Below are positions 2,955 to 10,975 of a DNA stretch of 64,000 nt, one piece after another. The DNA is from Escherichia coli (lineage in GTDB: Bacteria > Pseudomonadota > Gammaproteobacteria > Enterobacterales > Enterobacteriaceae). The stretch lies in NCBI GenBank assembly GCA_002099625.1, contig GCA_002099625.1_4857.1; one strand, given 5' to 3'. Under the pieces are notes generated by a model. It had not been told where the DNA came from. It made no database searches and saw only the letters and a list, made by a program, of their open reading frames with translations. Numbering within the stretch: position 1 is the stretch's first letter; every line of letters begins with the position of its first letter. Both the position numbers and the translations under genes were made by a program.

Positions 2955-3018
2955 GTTGTTCTCCAACAGTTGACAAATCTGTGTCTTCTGTGTTAAACCT
3001 GAATTCGTTGGCTAAAAG

Positions 3019-3094
3019 TGGCGGGGGCACGAGGTTTCGAACCTCGAACCTTCGGTTTTGGAGACCGGTGCGCTACCAATTGCGCCATACCCCC
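3019..3094 (-). tRNA. tRNA-Trp (anticodon CCA)
   Basis: Reverse complement gggggta-tg-gcgc-aattggta-gcgc-a-ccggt-ctCCAaa-accga-aggtt-cgagg-ttcgaaa-cctcg-tgccccc-g-cca; closely resembles E. coli tRNA-Trp; C27-A43 mismatch. Confidence 0.85.
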
Positions 3095-3188
3095 CAGAAT
3101 TCTTTAAACGTGTTTATACGGATGCGCTACCCCGTTATCGCAGGCGATTGATGGGGTCAAGCTTGCGTGCTTCTGACTCCCGCATGAT

Positions 3189-3680
3189 TCACCTCCGTAG
3201 TTCGTAAGTGCTAATCTCACCACCGGTATAGATATCGCATTCGGACGCAATCTCAACAGCACGAACCGCATTCGCGCCCATCTTCATCGCACCCAACGCG
3301 TACTCGTAACCGCTTCCGGTTGCCAGAGGTGGTGTGGCTTCACTCCACCACAACGACACGTCGTCTTCACGCTTCCCACCGACTATCGCTTTCCCTGAGG
3401 CCAGAAGCATCAGGAAAGTAAAATCCATCTTCGCAGGTAACTGCGAGCTTTGTGTTAACCCCTTGTAGCCGGGTCTCAAGCGGACCGTTTCCAGCAGGGC
3501 CAATTGTCCTGTGATGTCGCCGCTTACCCCGAACACCACAATTCGTTCACCGGTAATCCACCACTCCTCGTCGGGAGGACAGACGAATAACTTCTGGGTA
3601 TTCAGGTTGCAGATATTCGACCCACGGGTTAACTGGCCGTCAGCAGCTAAGACTTTTCCATCGAACGCTATCGTGGTCAT
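3189..3680 (-). CDS. HslV/proteasome beta-like N-terminal-nucleophile hydrolase
   Basis: N-terminus MTTIAFDGKVLAADGQLTRG matches the HslV/proteasome beta start (Thr1 nucleophile exposed after Met removal; TTI...VLAADGQ); GGAGAA ribosome-binding site before ATG at 3680. Confidence 0.6.
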   Translation of the reverse strand: MTTIAFDGKVLAADGQLTRGSNICNLNTQKLFVCPPDEEWWITGERIVVFGVSGDITGQLALLETVRLRPGYKGLTQSSQLPAKMDFTFLMLLASGKAIVGGKREDDVSLWWSEATPPLATGSGYEYALGAMKMGANAVRAVEIASECDIYTGGEISTYELRR

Positions 3681-4626
3681 GATTTAATTCTCCGTTTGGT
3701 TTATCATACCTCACGCAGAATCTGTAAATTTTAATCAGCCAGGTACCGTCGTTTCTCAACGGGAGTACCCACCCCTCTCGTCTGTTCCGAGCCGGCAAGA
3801 TATGGACCAACCTCCTCATCGGAGTTATCCCCCAAGTCTGCGGTTCTACACGCAGACCCCTTTTCGACGCAACGCCGAATTCGAATCAGTTTTGGCCCGA
3901 CGCCAGAGCGGAATCAGCGATAACTATCGGAGGTAAGTTCAACGACGTCTCTCCGCTGCCCAGTCCTCTGGCGCTGCCACGGTCAACTCGGATTTTGTCA
4001 TGGGTGCGCAGTCGACTTTCTCGACACTCTCGCAAACCGAACTACGCCCGACGTAGCACCGTCGGCAGGTCGGTTATTTACCGAGTACCTGAATGGGTGG
4101 TGATTGTCGGAATCCCCGCCGACGCTCACCGGTTCTGTTCCACGGCGAAAGTTTTCCAGAACATAATAAATCACGCAGTGTTAGATTGCGCTTTGTCGAA
4201 GACACCACGGTAGGTATTTTCGAAAAAGCGTCCTGGGTAACAATCCCAGGACTTGGAGCCCTAGCGTGCAGGGTTTAAAAGTGATTGGACCATTGGCGCG
4301 GTCAATCGCTATTCGCATATAACAACAAACTCACGTAATCAAAAAATTACCGGCTCGAGGCGTAGGCGTCCAGGAGCCGGTGAGTCACACAGCAGTGAGT
4401 CCCTCTGCGGGGATTTTCGTGGAGCTTGTCGTTGGAATAAAAATCCGTCCCCGGACGGGTTGGTGGTGTGGGTCGACTTGTCAGAGTCTGCCGTCCAGGG
4501 AGGCGGCCACCGAAGCTATGGGTTTTGGACATCGAGTGGTGGTCTGAACACACGATAGGGAAACCACGTAAAAAATACACAGGGTACCCAAACCAGGACG
4601 TCTGTCCGATCACGATCTCTTAATAA

Positions 4627-4797
4627 GGATCACGCGCGCGCCCGCACGCGTTTTAAGATCTTAATATATTAATATATTTATTTATATAAATAATTATAAT
4701 AATTAAATATAATACCTAAAGGTATTATTATATTTAATATTATTATATATTTTAAAAGATCCTGGAGGATACGGGTGTGCGCACGCGCACGCGTATA
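4627..4797. repeat. AT-rich imperfect palindrome (about 100 bp, >95% A+T) flanked by alternating CG/CA GC-rich blocks
   Basis: Left clamp cacgcgcgcgcccgcacgcg (4631-4650), AT tract 4651-4760 centred on aatacc-taaa-ggtatt (4711-4726), right clamp gtgtgcgcacgcgcacgcgt (4776-4795); GATC at both inner borders. Confidence 0.7.
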
Positions 4798-4888
4798 AGG
4801 AAAGGGTCTTCGACCCGATCCACAGGATCGATCTAAAAAACAATCTAAGTGATTGTTTTAAAAAGAAATTTTGAGAATTAGATTAAAT

Positions 4889-4911
4889 TATCCCCTAAGG
4901 GGGATTTTTAG
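4889..4911 (+). terminator. Terminator-like hairpin in non-coding region
   Basis: atcccc-taag-ggggat followed by ttttt; no annotated upstream plus-strand gene, so it may end a small RNA. Confidence 0.3.
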
Positions 4912-5394
4912 AGTGAGTTAACAACCCAAAGAACTCGTAAGTAACCGACAGTGTGTGTCGGTTACAGAACGATCCAGTTTTCACCCAGACATGGCACGAA
5001 GTGCTACCCAACGTGTGATCGTCGTCGCGGCCGGCGACCGTCGTCCCGGAACCGAAACGGGAATGGCTCTCTCGCGCTCTCAGCGGCCCGCTGGCGAGAT
5101 TTTCCGGTAGGGGGAACCCAAGTGTACTGGGTTGGGTATAAATCTCTTTCTAGCGCCTTCTAGAGCGTTTTTAATAACTGGTTAAAAAACATACAATCCT
5201 GAATCCCCATTCCCCGTATTTCCTCGCCCCGACAAAAATAAATTCTCTGTCTCGATACATAACCCCCTCTAAAACGCACGTAACCGACCCTAGAAAACGA
5301 TAAACTGCCAAAAACGAGCTACCCTACATCCAGACCACTTAATCGTTTTCTGACGTCTCCTAGACCCCCTTTAACCGGCCGGTTAAAAAAATAA

Positions 5395-5447
5395 TCAAAA
5401 AAAAAATAAAAAAAATAAGATTGGCGTACTCCCCGAAGAGAGTACGC
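5395..5447 (-). terminator. Rho-independent terminator
   Basis: Hairpin gcgtactc-cccgaaga-gagtacgc (5424-5447) followed on the minus strand by a long U-run (A-run 5390-5420); immediately downstream of CDS 5456..5965. Confidence 0.55.
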
Positions 5448-5455
5448 CTAGTGAC

Positions 5456-5965
5456 TTAACACTTGATGGTATAGCCATCAAGGCCAAGGTGTACTGGTTT
5501 TATCCATAACCCTGGCTCCCCGAAAATATTCAGGTCGTAAGTTTGGTAATGCATGATCTTTGCAGGAACATGCACACCCATGCGTTGCAGAAATTCCCAG
5601 ACGGCGACGTAACGTTCACGAGTGATGAACATTAATCCGGAGTCGAACCCGGAACCGATGTCTAGGAAATTACCAAGAGAACTGTCAAAACTTGACACAC
5701 CATCTTGAGTAAGTGCGACCAACCCTTTAGTTAAATCTCTGTGGTTGTCAATGAAGTTACAGAGATCTACGATGGTTATTTGACCGTAAATACGACGGAG
5801 GACGGCAGCAACAGCCAAAATCTCGCTGGTATTTCCGTAGTCACCTAAAGGGTTATGGTCCATCATCGCAGTAATTATGCTTGTGTCGCAGAGGTCGATT
5901 AACCGCTGGTCGTGTACCACCAGGTTAAGACCTTGCCCCACCTGCACGGTTGGCGCAGTAAACAT
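5456..5965 (-). CDS. Hypothetical protein (169 aa)
   Basis: ORF 5456..6010; AAGGAG ribosome-binding site precedes ATG at 5965 (MFTAPTVQ), removing the overlap with the upstream gene. Confidence 0.6.
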   Translation of the reverse strand: MFTAPTVQVGQGLNLVVHDQRLIDLCDTSIITAMMDHNPLGDYGNTSEILAVAAVLRRIYGQITIVDLCNFIDNHRDLTKGLVALTQDGVSSFDSSLGNFLDIGSGFDSGLMFITRERYVAVWEFLQRMGVHVPAKIMHYQTYDLNIFGEPGLWIKPVHLGLDGYTIKC

Positions 5966-5975
5966 AGGAGGCTCC

Positions 5976-7109
5976 TTACGTTTTGACTGACTGTGAAGGT
6001 ACTCTGGCATCGTACATTAAAAAGATTTCCAGCAGACTCATACCCGTCGCGTAAAAGATTTGGTCTGTAATGACACTCACCAACGCTTCTGGGTCAATCG
6101 CGTCTACTGCAAAATCACTGTCGAACTGCCAGAACTCGACGTCATCCCCCTTTTCAAATGTCGCGGCATACAATCCAGGTTTCACACCACGCCGGAACGA
6201 AAAGAGTTTTGCGTCAGACTCAGTGTCCTTACCATAGATTTCCCCGTCGGTCCGTGTGATCGCTGCGCGTTTACACCGAGTTACCGTAAGGAGCGCACGG
6301 TTTGCAGATGCTTGCGATTTAAACGGATAGGGGCCATCGTATGTCGGGACATTCTGGTCGCCTAAGGCATCAAGTGCCTTACTCCGATAGACTACCGGAG
6401 ACTTAAAATTACACAGTCGATTCCCTTCGGTAAACATTGTGTATTCGACCTTAACGTCGGTACCGACGAGGTCAGCAGGGGACACTTTGTAGTGTGCTAA
6501 CTGTCCCTGCACGCGGCGAGAAAGCATCGATGCCAGGAAGGTATGGTTGCCCTGTGTACGCAAGACATAACCGAACTCTGTGCAGTCGACGATACGAGCG
6601 TCCATACGTCGTACAGGCTCCAGCCGGTAAGTCACATCATTCGCTTCGATAAGAAACTGACTGATGCTAACATCGCGAGATCGATGTTTGATTGCTTCAA
6701 ACACTTCACCCGCTTCCAGAATAGCTGGTTCAATTACATTGACCTGGAATGGGAGGGGTTTCGTCGGCCGTTGACCCATTGTTGTCACTGTCATCGAACG
6801 TAGCCACGGATCGTCCTCGCTAGGGTCATTGGAAAGCCAATGTGTTAACCAGCGAGAAAGGTTCTGAGGAATCGTTGCGGTTGAATATAAAATCACGGTA
6901 CCCATTATGCCTGCATCGGCCAGCAAGCGCGCGAGTACCGTGTTCATCGAATCGTATTTGCCATTTCGAAGAATAGGTAATCCTCCGACCTGGACCATTT
7001 CGCAGATGACGCCGTGTGGCAACACCCACATCTTCACTTGTTGGGCAGAATGTATCTGCCCAGTGCGCAGCTTTTCTTGCCACGCGTGCTTACGTTCAAA
7101 GTTCATCAT
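5976..7109 (-). CDS. Hypothetical protein (377 aa)
   Basis: Long ORF, tandem ATG start, co-directional with neighbours. Confidence 0.65.
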   Translation of the reverse strand: MMNFERKHAWQEKLRTGQIHSAQQVKMWVLPHGVICEMVQVGGLPILRNGKYDSMNTVLARLLADAGIMGTVILYSTATIPQNLSRWLTHWLSNDPSEDDPWLRSMTVTTMGQRPTKPLPFQVNVIEPAILEAGEVFEAIKHRSRDVSISQFLIEANDVTYRLEPVRRMDARIVDCTEFGYVLRTQGNHTFLASMLSRRVQGQLAHYKVSPADLVGTDVKVEYTMFTEGNRLCNFKSPVVYRSKALDALGDQNVPTYDGPYPFKSQASANRALLTVTRCKRAAITRTDGEIYGKDTESDAKLFSFRRGVKPGLYAATFEKGDDVEFWQFDSDFAVDAIDPEALVSVITDQIFYATGMSLLEIFLMYDARVPSQSVKT

Positions 7110-8624: not shown

Positions 8625-8867
8625 TCAGGCGAGTGCTCCCGATACGGCAACTTGATGTAGGGTATACACAACGTGTAGCCCCGCGGTCGATAGTCCACCG
8701 ATAAGCAATACGCCAAAGCTACAGATAATCTGTCCGAGCCGCATTGTGCGTGTGCAGACATCGTGACTTTGTGCGTGTATGCGTATTACTTCGATGGTGT
8801 GGCGTAAGCCAAAGTATAGGCAAATCCACATTACCAGCACGATTGCGTAGTAGAGTTGAGTCATCAC
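8625..8867 (-). CDS. Small membrane protein (80 aa, two predicted TM helices)
   Basis: ORF overlaps terminase stop by 4 nt; hydrophobic stretches YYAIVLVMWICLYFGL and ICSFGVLLIGGLSTAGL. Confidence 0.45.
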   Translation of the reverse strand: MMTQLYYAIVLVMWICLYFGLRHTIEVIRIHAQSHDVCTRTMRLGQIICSFGVLLIGGLSTAGLHVVYTLHQVAVSGALA

Positions 8868-10975
8868 TTCATCCTCTGTCGTTGGATTAGCTCTTTCAAG
8901 CTTTCCATCGATGCGACGTTACGAACGTCAGTGTTGAGTTGAGAGACGAGCGCTTGAATACGATTCTTGTACATGAGCTGTTGTACCGGGTCGGCCACAA
9001 CTTGACTCTGTCTAATCATCGTTTCAATTTGCCCCATCAGTTGTTGTTGCTTTTCTTCTTCCTCGACTGCAGCCTCTTCATCGAATTCACCTGCCATGCC
9101 CCCGAGCATATTGCGGTTGCGCATCATCAGTCGGCTGTTACTTATACCGTAGTGGCCTAAGTTGTTGCCGAACAGAAGTAACCACATTGCCAGAAGCCAG
9201 GATATTACCAGGTCATCGTGACCGGATGCACGGTGGTCTATGCGCCCGTTTCGTTCGACGAGACCGAGGATTTGGTCGATCAATTCGCCTGACCGCAGTA
9301 AGTCCGCAGAAAGACGCAACGCCGTGGTAAATACTTCACCATACAACTTACGGCGTTTATCCTGGTCGGTTGAGAAACCGATGTATTTACGGAATTTGTC
9401 CCAGAAGCGCTCTGGACTGCCCACAGGGCCACGATGGAACTCTTTGTAAAGTTCATCGTTCCTTGAGTAATCCTGGGTCACTTTCACGTACAAACGACGA
9501 TGCAAATCGCGAACCTTAGATTGCAGCTGCAGTATGATGGCATCTGCTACCGAGGAGCCGGTAGACCGTCGTTCCAGAATGAGTACCGTGTTCGGATATT
9601 CGATCATGAAGTCTGCTAAGTGAATCGCAAACCCGATGACGTTTGTTTCGTTCACGGTGAGCTTGCCGGCATATTCGGCAGTGACAGAGTTGACGATTGA
9701 CATGGCAATGGCGTCCCGCCCCACGGCTTCGGAAGTATCCAAACCGATGATGTGGCGGTCTTGCATTTTAACCAGCATCTGTTCTTCAGTGTAATACCAA
9801 TCCGTTACGTAGTTGGAAGCAGAGATAATTTTCTGTGCTGCCCGAATACGCGAGGCGTTCATACGTCTTGCATCATCGCCTGAGAACGGTTTGTTGTAAC
9901 CACCGGTTGTCCATTCACCACCGAAGTCACGGCGGATTTGGTCTGGTGTACCTGGGGCGTTCGCAATCATATCTGCGAGTTCTTCGTCCGTAGTACCGAG
10001 CTGGCGGTGGTTGTATTTCACGTAGAACATGATACGTGGAATCTTCGCAGTAGAGCCTTTGCGAATCATGTCAATCAGTTGTGCACGAGTCGGAATGTCG
10101 ATATACCGTTCATCCCACGAAATCCCCGACGTCATCAGGCTGTACATGTACTCGCCTTCTTCTGTCGCCAAATCCCCAGGCGTTGTTGCGAAGACGTTGC
10201 CGTATGGAACACCTTCGGCTTCGTTAATACGACGCGCCGCGGTACCCGATGCTAGTGCAGCGGGGAGAATATGGTGGATGTTGTTGGTAAACGGTCCTTC
10301 ATCCGAGAACAGGCGTCCGGCTGTGAGTCCACGACCTACCCCGTTCGCAGCTTCCTTATCGTTTTGACCGATGCCGGTGATAAGTTTGTTGCCCTGCGCT
10401 AGACATGCAAATGTCTCACGGTTATCAGGATCGTCCGGGTGATGAGGCCAGAGGTAATCCGGTAACGCGTTACGCAGTTGCTTCATCTTGTTGATAGTTT
10501 CTTCACGCAGGGCAGGACCCTTCGTGATAAGAATCGTGCGTGAGTTCTCCAGGAAGCGCATCAGCCACAATAGCAATGCGGACATCCCGACAGTTTTACC
10601 ATGCTGACGGAGAAACTCGATAGCGGCGTCGATGTTGTTGAAGAAAATCCAGTACATCGAAAAGTTACCGCGGTCTAGACGAAACGGCATCCCGTTCTTT
10701 ACACCATCCGCAGGGACACGGACACATTCACGGAAGAAGTACCATGGGTTTTCCGCACACTCCGTAACAATCATCGCTTTTTGTTCGAGTGTTAAATCCG
10801 GACTGAACGGATCAACACCACGGAGTTCGGGATTGTGTAATGCCAGGTGGACGTACCAATGCTGGACACCTAATCCTTGTAGTGTTGTGGCGAATTGAAG
10901 GAAGTGCACGTTTGGTGTGACGTCGTCAACAATCGCCCCCGGATAGTGTCGCCAATCGTTTTTTCGCAGTATCAT
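8864..10975 (-). CDS. Terminase large subunit
   Basis: 703 aa; Walker A-like LRQHGKTVG, a pattern like T4 gp17 SRQLGKT; C-terminal nuclease-like IGLDTSEAVGRD and GHDDLVISW; GGAG ribosome-binding site before ATG at 10975. Confidence 0.8.
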   Translation of the reverse strand: MILRKNDWRHYPGAIVDDVTPNVHFLQFATTLQGLGVQHWYVHLALHNPELRGVDPFSPDLTLEQKAMIVTECAENPWYFFRECVRVPADGVKNGMPFRLDRGNFSMYWIFFNNIDAAIEFLRQHGKTVGMSALLLWLMRFLENSRTILITKGPALREETINKMKQLRNALPDYLWPHHPDDPDNRETFACLAQGNKLITGIGQNDKEAANGVGRGLTAGRLFSDEGPFTNNIHHILPAALASGTAARRINEAEGVPYGNVFATTPGDLATEEGEYMYSLMTSGISWDERYIDIPTRAQLIDMIRKGSTAKIPRIMFYVKYNHRQLGTTDEELADMIANAPGTPDQIRRDFGGEWTTGGYNKPFSGDDARRMNASRIRAAQKIISASNYVTDWYYTEEQMLVKMQDRHIIGLDTSEAVGRDAIAMSIVNSVTAEYAGKLTVNETNVIGFAIHLADFMIEYPNTVLILERRSTGSSVADAIILQLQSKVRDLHRRLYVKVTQDYSRNDELYKEFHRGPVGSPERFWDKFRKYIGFSTDQDKRRKLYGEVFTTALRLSADLLRSGELIDQILGLVERNGRIDHRASGHDDLVISWLLAMWLLLFGNNLGHYGISNSRLMMRNRNMLGGMAGEFDEEAAVEEEEKQQQLMGQIETMIRQSQVVADPVQQLMYKNRIQALVSQLNTDVRNVASMESLKELIQRQRMK

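Follow-up and report, generated by a model that had tools for sequence, protein, structure and literature searches.

Layout of the element

The stretch of DNA analysed here, 64,000 nucleotides of an SPN3US-like jumbo phage (genus Seoulvirus; hereafter the window), contains a region of 1.77 kb without a protein gene (3681-5455), and within that region a compact element (4608-4833) in which an A+T island is enclosed by GC-rich clamps, conserved boxes and clustered GATC sites. The layout recurs in four genera of giant Salmonella and Erwinia phages, and we read it as a cis-acting DNA element, with the DNA-unwinding element of the phage replication origin as its most likely, tentatively assigned, role. 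The parts of the element are as follows.

4608-4833, unstranded: cluster of eight GATC sites (left and edge sites at 4608, 4614, 4628 and 4657; right sites at 4758, 4817, 4826 and 4830)
4614-4633, unstranded: left conserved box, GATCTCTTAATAAGGATCAC, with the palindrome CTTA-A-TAAG and two GATC sites inside
4631-4650, unstranded: left CG clamp, CACGCGCGCGCCCGCACGCG, self-complementary and mostly alternating purine-pyrimidine
4651-4757 (107 bp), unstranded: A+T island, proposed DNA-unwinding element, 93% A+T (measured over 4649-4757)
4708-4729 (best arms), unstranded: central hairpin or palindrome, TATAATACC-TAAA-GGTATTATT
4750-4772, unstranded: right conserved box, TTTTAAAAGATCCTGGAGGATAC, with the invariant core AAAGATCCTGnAGGA and the inverted repeat TCCT/AGGA
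4775-4794, unstranded: right clamp, GTGTGCGCACGCGCACGCGT, 20 nt of perfect purine-pyrimidine alternation, holding a GC palindrome
4804-4816, 4841-4855 and 4890-4909, minus strand: three hairpins, GGGTCTTCGACCC, CAATCTAAGTGATTG (A- and T-runs on both sides) and ATCCCCTAAGGGGGAT followed by T5, respectively

An original prediction, made from the letters of the window, had described an almost pure A+T stretch of about 100 bp bracketed by alternating purine-pyrimidine GC blocks and GATC sites, with small hairpins carrying T-runs at 4800-4910. All of these are present, the A+T stretch at 4649-4757, the GC blocks as the two clamps, the eight GATC sites at 4608-4833, and the hairpins at 4804-4816, 4841-4855 and 4890-4905. 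Under a criterion of at least 86% A+T in a 50-nt window, the island has no counterpart elsewhere in the 64-kb window or in the remainder of the 240-kb SPN3US genome; the right box has a single match in the window even at two mismatches.

The A+T stretch had also been taken for an imperfect palindrome, and this holds in part. The centre, aatACC-taaa-GGTatt, lies at 4711-4726, and the segment 4631-4795, folded as single-stranded DNA, reaches −29.9 kcal/mol compared to −18.95 ± 2.76 kcal/mol for shuffled sequences (z = −3.97, 0 of 200 shuffles as good), whereas the A+T block alone shows no clear excess over chance (z = −1.5, 13 of 200 shuffles as good). Thus, the signal comes from the central hairpin together with the GC clamps, not from a 100-bp palindrome. 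A single giant, geminivirus-like stem-loop, with the left clamp paired to the right one, was rejected: the left clamp is only 6 nt long in several lineages, so that a long clamp-clamp stem is not conserved.

The density of GATC sites is 24 per kb in 4608-4833 vs. 2.2 per kb in the remaining window. The SPN3US genome is depleted of GATC (489 sites found vs. ~1197 expected, ~41%), and this cluster is the densest 250-bp GATC cluster in it. The eight contexts are cGATCa, cGATCt, gGATCa, aGATCt, aGATCc, cGATCc, gGATCg and cGATCt. The phage encodes a D12/Dam-class N6-adenine methyltransferase (SPN3US record 96875-97669, PF02086, E = 2.5 × 10−52). A further invariant CGATC at 5016-5020 (columns 245-250 of alignment A2, described below; window 5013-5027), next to a covarying UUCG-loop hairpin, extends the GATC-rich zone to ~5020.

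Conservation across phage genera

In a sensitive nucleotide search, conservation of the non-coding region extended far outside Seoulvirus. It is syntenic with the corresponding region of SPAsTU, pEa_SNUABM_29 and phiEaH2, with 62-70% nucleotide identity over 1.6-1.75 kb, and aligns in two blocks with Machinavirus (Huxley, ChrisDB, Caitlin and several SNUABM phages) and Wellingtonvirus (Kwan, Wellington). In these phages of other genera, the 377-residue protein encoded next to the region shares only 48-80% identity. The layout of the element recurs in Seoulvirus, Erskinevirus, Machinavirus and Wellingtonvirus, and A+T islands of 66-109 bp with 83-96% A+T occupy the equivalent place in every lineage (14 lineages). 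The comparison with related phages, which the original prediction had proposed as a check, therefore finds the architecture of the island conserved across four genera.

The common plan begins with one or more GATC sites followed by the box GATCTC(G/T)TAATAAGGATCAC, continues with a CG tract of 6-20 nt, depending on the lineage, and with the 66-109 bp A+T stretch, the sequence of which drifts in detail, and then passes through the invariant TTTTAAAAGATCCTGnAGGAAA, the GC palindrome and a TATAAT-like box (TATAAG in the window) to a variable hairpin with additional GATC sites. The left box is near-invariant in Seoulvirus, Erskinevirus, most Machinavirus and Wellingtonvirus, and the right box is invariant in 12 of the 13 aligned lineages, with one additional C in Wellingtonvirus. 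In 12 of 14 lineages, GATC sites number 15-24 per kb within the element vs. 1-2 per kb outside it; the density is 6-9 per kb in ChrisDB and Caitlin, and only 2-3 sites are retained in ChrisDB, Caitlin and SNUABM_4.

The sequence of the central hairpin varies among lineages while its position and pairing are kept by compensatory change: most Erwinia phages have TATCCC-TAC-GGGATA (CCC-TAC-GGG with A+T extensions), phiEaH2 has ATATCT-AA-AGATAT, and Wellingtonvirus has an 8-bp palindrome of A+T only, AATTATAT-AA-ATATAATT. The arms of this hairpin comprise 144 Watson-Crick pairs, no G.T and one A.C. Likewise, the right clamp holds a GC palindrome in every lineage, with arms of 4-9 bp and differing sequences (CGCGTGCACGCG, GCGCGTACGCGC, CGTGCGCGCACG, ACGCGTGACGCGT). 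Taken together, the palindromes at the island centre and in the right clamp of 15 lineages contain 244 Watson-Crick pairs, 5 G.T and 2 A.C; the palindrome search favours Watson-Crick pairs, which softens the argument from strand symmetry.

Because these palindromes are strand-symmetric, whereas 16% of the pairs in the flanking RNA helices are G.U with a 5.5-to-1 strand bias, and because GATC clustering would have no meaning in RNA and a Dam-class methyltransferase is encoded by the phage, we conclude from the sequence patterns that the island and its clamps are probably a DNA element embedded in an RNA-coding region, with the constraint acting on double-stranded DNA. The retention of length, A+T content, boxes, GC palindrome, hairpin and GATC sites while the A+T sequence drifts points the same way. 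The original prediction of a DNA-level site that could serve as a replication origin, a packaging site or a regulatory hub is thus partly supported: the comparative data speak strongly for a DNA-level element that is unique in the genome and positionally conserved across four genera, and no result separates the three roles. Pattern scans of IMG/VR, a metagenome collection and 100,044 species genomes recovered only this phage clade; the 15-base right-box pattern gave mostly chance matches in IMG/VR, and longer patterns led to the same clade only.

The interval without protein genes

The whole window is 97.3% identical to the SPN3US GenBank record and, therefore, comes from a close relative of SPN3US, a different isolate; its plus strand corresponds to the minus strand of that record. 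The genes around the element are arranged as follows, with tRNA-Trp and tRNA-Asn genes further left of the peptidase gene.

3189-3680, minus strand: HslV-family peptidase gene, left neighbour of the region without protein genes
3681-5455, unstranded: region without a protein gene, 1.77 kb, between two minus-strand genes
5423-5448, minus strand: intrinsic terminator of the upstream gene (11-bp stem, UUCG loop, long U-tract at 5385-5422)
5456-6010, minus strand: PHROG 9731 gene, product of unknown function, right neighbour of the region
8864-10975: large terminase gene, 4 kb from the element

The 1775 bases of 3681-5455 are 93-100% identical to those of Seoulvirus Salmonella jumbo phages (SPN3US, SaP7, and the SPLA and SPFM series). 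Nothing is annotated beneath this match in 13 full-length Seoulvirus records, the exceptions being 'hypothetical protein' calls in a few fragmented SPFM assemblies. When stop-to-stop open reading frames (ORFs) were compared among nine lineages, matches appeared in every frame and on both strands simultaneously; the conservation is, therefore, at the nucleotide and not at the protein level, and a protein-coding explanation was ruled out, no reading frame being conserved. The claim that 3681-5455 holds no credible ORF agrees with these observations, and the two circumstances named as fatal to the original prediction do not apply: related phages carry a conserved non-coding element at this place and not a normal coding gene, and the element is not an assembly artefact, since the same architecture is found in at least 14 independent genomes and metagenome contigs.

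Structured RNAs on the minus strand

The region had been called gene-free, which is correct for protein genes; its flanks, missed in this respect, carry genes for structured RNAs on the minus strand.

3725-4335, minus strand: large structured non-coding RNA, ~600 nt (3' domain 3725-3977, second domain ~4040-4335)
4341-4458, minus strand: two intrinsic-terminator-like units (hairpin 4445-4458 with U-tract 4436-4444; hairpin 4350-4380 with U-tract 4341-4349)
4930-5210, minus strand: right-hand conserved non-coding block with hairpins (alignment A2, 15 lineages)

In the left block, invariant stretches, among them a core of 28 nt in the large RNA (UCUUGGCGGCUCGGAAAGACGAGAGGGG), are separated by covarying helices. 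A structure of five helices was scored on the minus strand in an alignment of 16 lineages (A1). Of its cells, 87.1% were paired compared to 74.9% after shuffling, 21 of the 36 pairs were altered on both sides (0 of 500 shuffles reach that), and the covariation score was 0.417 vs. 0.213 for shuffled alignments (0 of 500 as high) and 0.08-0.14 for slid controls. One hairpin was 98.5% paired, with compensation in 8 of its 13 pairs. G.U occurred in 93 cells and A.C in 17, and this large excess of G.U indicates that the structure belongs to a minus-strand RNA, co-directional with the flanking genes and tRNAs; the consensus folding energy was −98 kcal/mol on the minus strand compared to −75 kcal/mol on the plus strand. 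The second domain, at ~4040-4335, covaries likewise. Compensatory changes and strand-specific G.U pairs, the general signs of a structured non-coding RNA, are thus both found in the left block.

The large RNA measures ~600 nt in Seoulvirus and Erskinevirus and is shorter in Machinavirus. Its covariance model finds one copy in the window (3725-3977, 234 bits, E = 8 × 10−70) and one per whole genome, with no match in Derbicus or CR5, so that the syntenic site of Derbicusvirus lacks the RNA. Rfam 15 returned tRNA only for 3000-6500 of the window (E up to 1), no match for 3650-4650 (E up to 10), and tRNAs plus sub-threshold chance matches for five relatives; a known RNA family was accordingly rejected. 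Mimicry of a host RNA was rejected as well, the invariant RNA motif being absent from 100,044 bacterial and archaeal species (one genome each). In the Erwinia phage Kwan (contig L008, 1101-1936) and also in Wellington (L160), an annotated HNH endonuclease gene (L008 1205-1714) lies inside the structured-RNA gene; in Kwan, the covariance model matches on either side of it, with 102 and 31.7 bits, and contigs L161, L162 and L164 are free of the insertion, which may represent a homing endonuclease or an intron in an RNA gene.

Both terminator-like units lie between the island and the large RNA and are retained, with stems of different sequence, by SPAsTU, pEa_SNUABM_29 and phiEaH2. They may represent small RNAs or a terminator cascade. 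Just after the U-tract of the second unit, at 4306-4320 on the minus strand, a conserved block with TATG (GUUAUAUGCGAAUAG) was noticed, which could be a candidate late-type start (T-3 A T G+1, phiKZ-like) for the large RNA.

The right-hand block forms the minus-strand hairpins ACCCAG-UACA-CUUGGGU, GCAC-UUCG-GUGC and GUAACCGACA...UGUCGGUUAC, and shows G.U pairs on that strand (e.g., pair 98:104 is G.U in 13 sequences). If transcribed, it would head toward the island. The three small hairpins at 4800-4910 belong to the same minus-strand RNA context: their positions are kept in relatives with altered stems, and among the pairs predicted without regard to strand over 4666-4938, mismatches that read as G.U on the minus strand outnumber those that read as G.U on the plus strand by 14 to 4. 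In minus-strand order, the upstream gene is followed by the terminator at 5423-5448, the structured RNA region, the hairpins, the GC palindrome and the A+T island, and then by the CG tract, the two short terminated units, the large structured RNA, the peptidase gene and the tRNAs. As judged from covariation, the flanks of the island encode predicted structured RNAs of a new family that is restricted to SPN3US-clade jumbo phages.

Promoters and terminators near the island

Structured RNA on both sides of the island and on the same strand opens an explanation in which two non-coding RNA genes are separated by the element as a transcriptional spacer. The right hairpins and the GC palindrome would terminate the right-hand RNA, and the A+T block would serve the left-hand RNAs as an upstream A+T-rich element or promoter (of middle or late type, or of host type with an UP element) or, alternatively, act as a promoter for a small plus-strand RNA starting after the TATAAG/TATAAT box at 4794-4799. 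Terminator-like sites are in excess in 3100-6100 (12 vs. 3.3 ± 1.8 expected from shuffles), and 9 of the 12 are on the minus strand, in keeping with this explanation. The island also contains sigma-70-like hexamers (10 of 12 positions matching), and the TATAAT-like box at the right clamp is conserved; however, promoter-like matches number 4 compared to 3.1 ± 1.9 in shuffles.

K-mer enrichment upstream of genes yielded the consensus ACTCnAAnAAATTTCAGATAGATATTATCT (also given as ACTCnAAnAAATTTCAGATAGATATTATCTnnGnGA), with 23-25 co-oriented sites. Its motif, AGATAGATATTATCT with upstream ACTCnAAnAAATTT, has 23-25 sites genome-wide at 15 bits or more, located 20-60 nt upstream of ORFs (e.g., SPN3US record 4432, 7395, 23815, 28974, 72491, 72689 and 184049, plus strand). 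This consensus is probably the early (virion RNA polymerase) promoter of the phage; being an A+T-rich motif of the −10 type, it fits the published description of early promoters in jumbo phages as conserved A+T-rich motifs of ~10 nt near −10 (PMC7598289). The early-promoter matrix has no match of at least 6 bits in 3601-5500 on either strand, and the island was accordingly rejected as an early promoter. A second enriched motif, TAGTATG, resembles the late TATG element of phiKZ. The (C/T)GTAA / TTACGTG motif was rejected as a promoter because TTACGTG occurs 27 vs. 26 times per strand genome-wide and is unlinked to gene starts; in the locus, such motifs mostly correspond to U-tracts of minus-strand terminators.

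The absence of a recognisable early-promoter consensus from the locus counts against a spacer, with the qualification that phiKZ middle promoters have a weak A+T-rich motif only and late promoters TATG only (PMC7598289), so that middle or late promoters of this type would be too weak in sequence for recognition. Furthermore, no other intergenic region of the genome has such an island, and a role in RNA synthesis or as a promoter leaves the eight GATC sites, the strand-symmetric GC palindromes and the constant length of ~100 bp unexplained. On balance, we regard a transcriptional spacer as unlikely.

Record ends, packaging and breakage

At least 10 records or contigs end in or beside the island, at different bases, including SPN3US, SEGD1, Proteus phage 7, SPFM2, SPFM16, SPFM17, Lh1B, JN03 and EC001 as well as metagenome contigs L170 and L171. 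The SPN3US record itself (JN641803 / NC_027402) lacks 57 nt (window 4866-4922) at the junction of its last and first bases; the 57 nt are present in every other full-length relative, and the SPN3US reference is, therefore, incomplete at its ends.

The main rival of the origin reading is a packaging (pac) site of the P1 type. Under this alternative, the terminase would make its first headful cut, at a time set by methylation, within a bendable A+T region of ~100 bp that has a cluster of Dam sites on either side. The arrangement of four plus four GATC sites around ~100 bp, that is, two clusters of Dam sites (4608-4660 and 4758-4833; in 12 of 14 lineages), is compatible with it, as are the phage-encoded Dam-class methylase, the large terminase gene 4 kb away (8864-10975), the many records and contigs that begin in or beside the island, and the headful packaging reported for the family (PMC6256631). 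The ends themselves are less favourable. They fall at differing bases (~4641, 4650, 4666, 4690, 4728, 4865) and define no single cut site; in the Erwinia phage records from BYU, base 1 was set by alignment and not mapped (PMC6256631); and in related giant phages, PhageTerm showed no defined termini (PMC12390700). Record starts were accordingly rejected as physical genome ends, being scattered over 4641-4865 or chosen by alignment, and the scatter suggests that assemblies break in the island because coverage drops out where A+T content is extreme and hairpins abound, and not because a genome end lies there. Moreover, the repeated TGATCA/G hexamer is absent and the GATC contexts differ, ChrisDB, Caitlin and SNUABM_4 make do with 2-3 GATC sites, and the element is neither inside nor beside a terminase small-subunit gene, none being known. 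A packaging site is, in our estimate, improbable.

The recurrent breaks in assemblies also bear on a different explanation, namely, a programmed cruciform or hairpin that acts as a hotspot of recombination or breakage and is cut by an SbcCD/Mre11-Rad50-like nuclease, seeding recombination-dependent replication or resolving concatemers. The strand-symmetric palindromes kept by compensatory change, the better-than-chance folding of 4631-4795, and the annotation of an SbcD-like palindrome-specific endonuclease subunit and an SMC-domain protein in the genome would suit such a site. However, the arms measure only 6-17 bp, in several lineages the isolated A+T block does not fold better than expected by chance (z from −0.7 to −1.5), and the site shows no rearrangement or raised divergence beyond the A+T drift; we consider a hotspot of this kind highly improbable.

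A candidate origin of replication

The reading that we favour, still tentatively and from sequence comparison, is that 4608-4833 functions as the DNA-unwinding element of a replication origin. In this scheme, ~100 bp of A+T would melt under negative supercoiling, the GC clamps would confine the melted bubble, and the boxes GATCTCTTAATAAGGATCAC and AAAGATCCTGnAGGA would be putative binding sites for some phage protein. Methylation of GATC, by host Dam or by the phage D12-class enzyme, might modulate melting or timing, as at oriC and P1 oriR. Minus-strand transcription through the right-hand structured RNA into the GC clamp and the A+T block could lead to an R-loop and to priming. The SPN3US genome encodes a DnaB-like helicase and DNA polymerases, with no initiator annotated; the lack of an initiator signature, together with a structured RNA that runs into a GC segment and then an A+T block, suggests, by analogy with other systems, transcription-dependent opening or priming at the island. 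An extended version, which we consider doubtful, holds that the locus is the replication origin of the SPN3US-related jumbo-phage clade and operates without a protein initiator of known type, that a structured RNA of ~400 nt forms an R-loop and primes DNA synthesis, and that the ~600-nt RNA downstream may share a control module.

Several observations weigh against an origin. Cumulative GC skew, a check listed in the original prediction, gave no independent signal: it follows gene orientation only, with no further inflection, and was rejected as a means of mapping the origin. The genes on both sides of the element are co-directional, unlike the divergence seen at many bidirectional origins. DnaA boxes (TTWTNCACA) have two matches in the 64 kb vs. 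5.6 expected by chance, and none in the locus; the search for iterons (at least three direct repeats of 15-22 bp beside the A+T block) returned only weak two- or three-copy families, the best repeat being a 23-nt pair that corresponds to the two clamps. An origin of the DnaA or iteron type was rejected on these grounds. There is no adjacent initiator gene, the neighbours being the HslV-family peptidase and PHROG families of unknown function, among which no Pfam domains were detected. The left box aligns to the 13-mer region of E. coli oriC with a score of 25 compared to 20.5 ± 2.6 for shuffled sequences, which 21 of 300 shuffles reach (p ~ 0.07); homology to oriC was rejected because 7% of shuffles attain this score and DnaA boxes are lacking in the locus. 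Finally, no promoter was identified for the proposed primer transcript, and the syntenic 420-nt intergenic region of Derbicusvirus (Derbicus, CR5) has no island.

That site in Derbicusvirus contains a stretch of ~70% A+T with repeated ATGGATAA / TGAATGA motifs after GGGGGGATCAAGGGGGGATGG (contig L166, Derbicus, 4600-4740; contig L167, CR5, 4545-4690), which may represent another type of cis element in the equivalent position.

Full-text literature searches returned nothing on the 3681-5455 region, and the searchable literature yielded neither a replication origin nor a packaging signal described for jumbo phages related to phiKZ or SPN3US; for genomes of this kind, a review of giant Aeromonas phages reports that attempts to predict an origin were unsuccessful. 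The element thus appears to be a cis site of the unwinding-element type that is new to the literature searched, and the flanking RNAs a new family of structured RNAs. As a single cis site with sharp bounds and phylogenetic conservation, the element offers a concrete target in the genetically tractable SPN3US. The island would explain why assemblies break here and why 57 bp are missing from the SPN3US reference record, and the flanking RNAs are left blank by current annotation pipelines.

Comparison with known systems

The likenesses of the locus to the origins of ColE1, T7, T4 and herpesviruses are analogies and do not imply membership in any of these classes. At P1 pac, two clusters of Dam sites surround a cleavage region of ~100 bp. 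The phage element shares the two groups of Dam sites around a centre of ~100 bp and the phage-borne Dam-class methylase; unlike P1 pac, it is devoid of the TGATCA/G hexamer repeat, lies outside a terminase gene and has no mapped fixed end.

The unwinding element of E. coli oriC consists of A+T-rich 13-mers that begin with GATC and is under Dam/SeqA control. The phage locus, likewise from an enterobacterial setting, resembles oriC in combining an A+T-rich block of the unwinding type with densely clustered GATC sites, and its left box GATCTCTTAATAAGGATC resembles the 13-mer region GATCTCTTATTAGGATC of E. coli, a likeness that is not significant (p ~ 0.07). It differs in having no DnaA boxes, an island that is three times longer, and GC palindromes that flank the island.

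Herpesvirus lytic origins are notoriously hard to clone and assemble and follow a transcription-linked logic like that of ColE1 RNA II. With oriS and oriL of herpes simplex virus and oriLyt of gammaherpesviruses, the phage element has in common an A+T-rich palindromic centre, inverted GC-rich boxes (AGGATC...GATCCT in the phage), a long non-coding region that yields non-coding RNA (in the phage, a predicted one), and difficulty of cloning or assembly. The two are non-homologous, and no UL9-like origin-binding protein was identified in the phage, so that this remains an analogy.

The primary origin of T7 consists of promoters followed by a 61-bp A+T region, and oriF and oriG of T4 of a promoter with a downstream unwinding element. 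The phage locus differs from these transcription-primed origins in its structured RNA, which is unrelated to RNA II and without an Rfam match. The resemblance to ColE1 RNA II, the T7 primary origin and T4 oriF/oriG lies in the order of parts: along the minus strand of the phage, a long non-coding region, conserved and structured, comes directly upstream of the A+T block, and the GC-rich segment that precedes the block could anchor an RNA-DNA hybrid.

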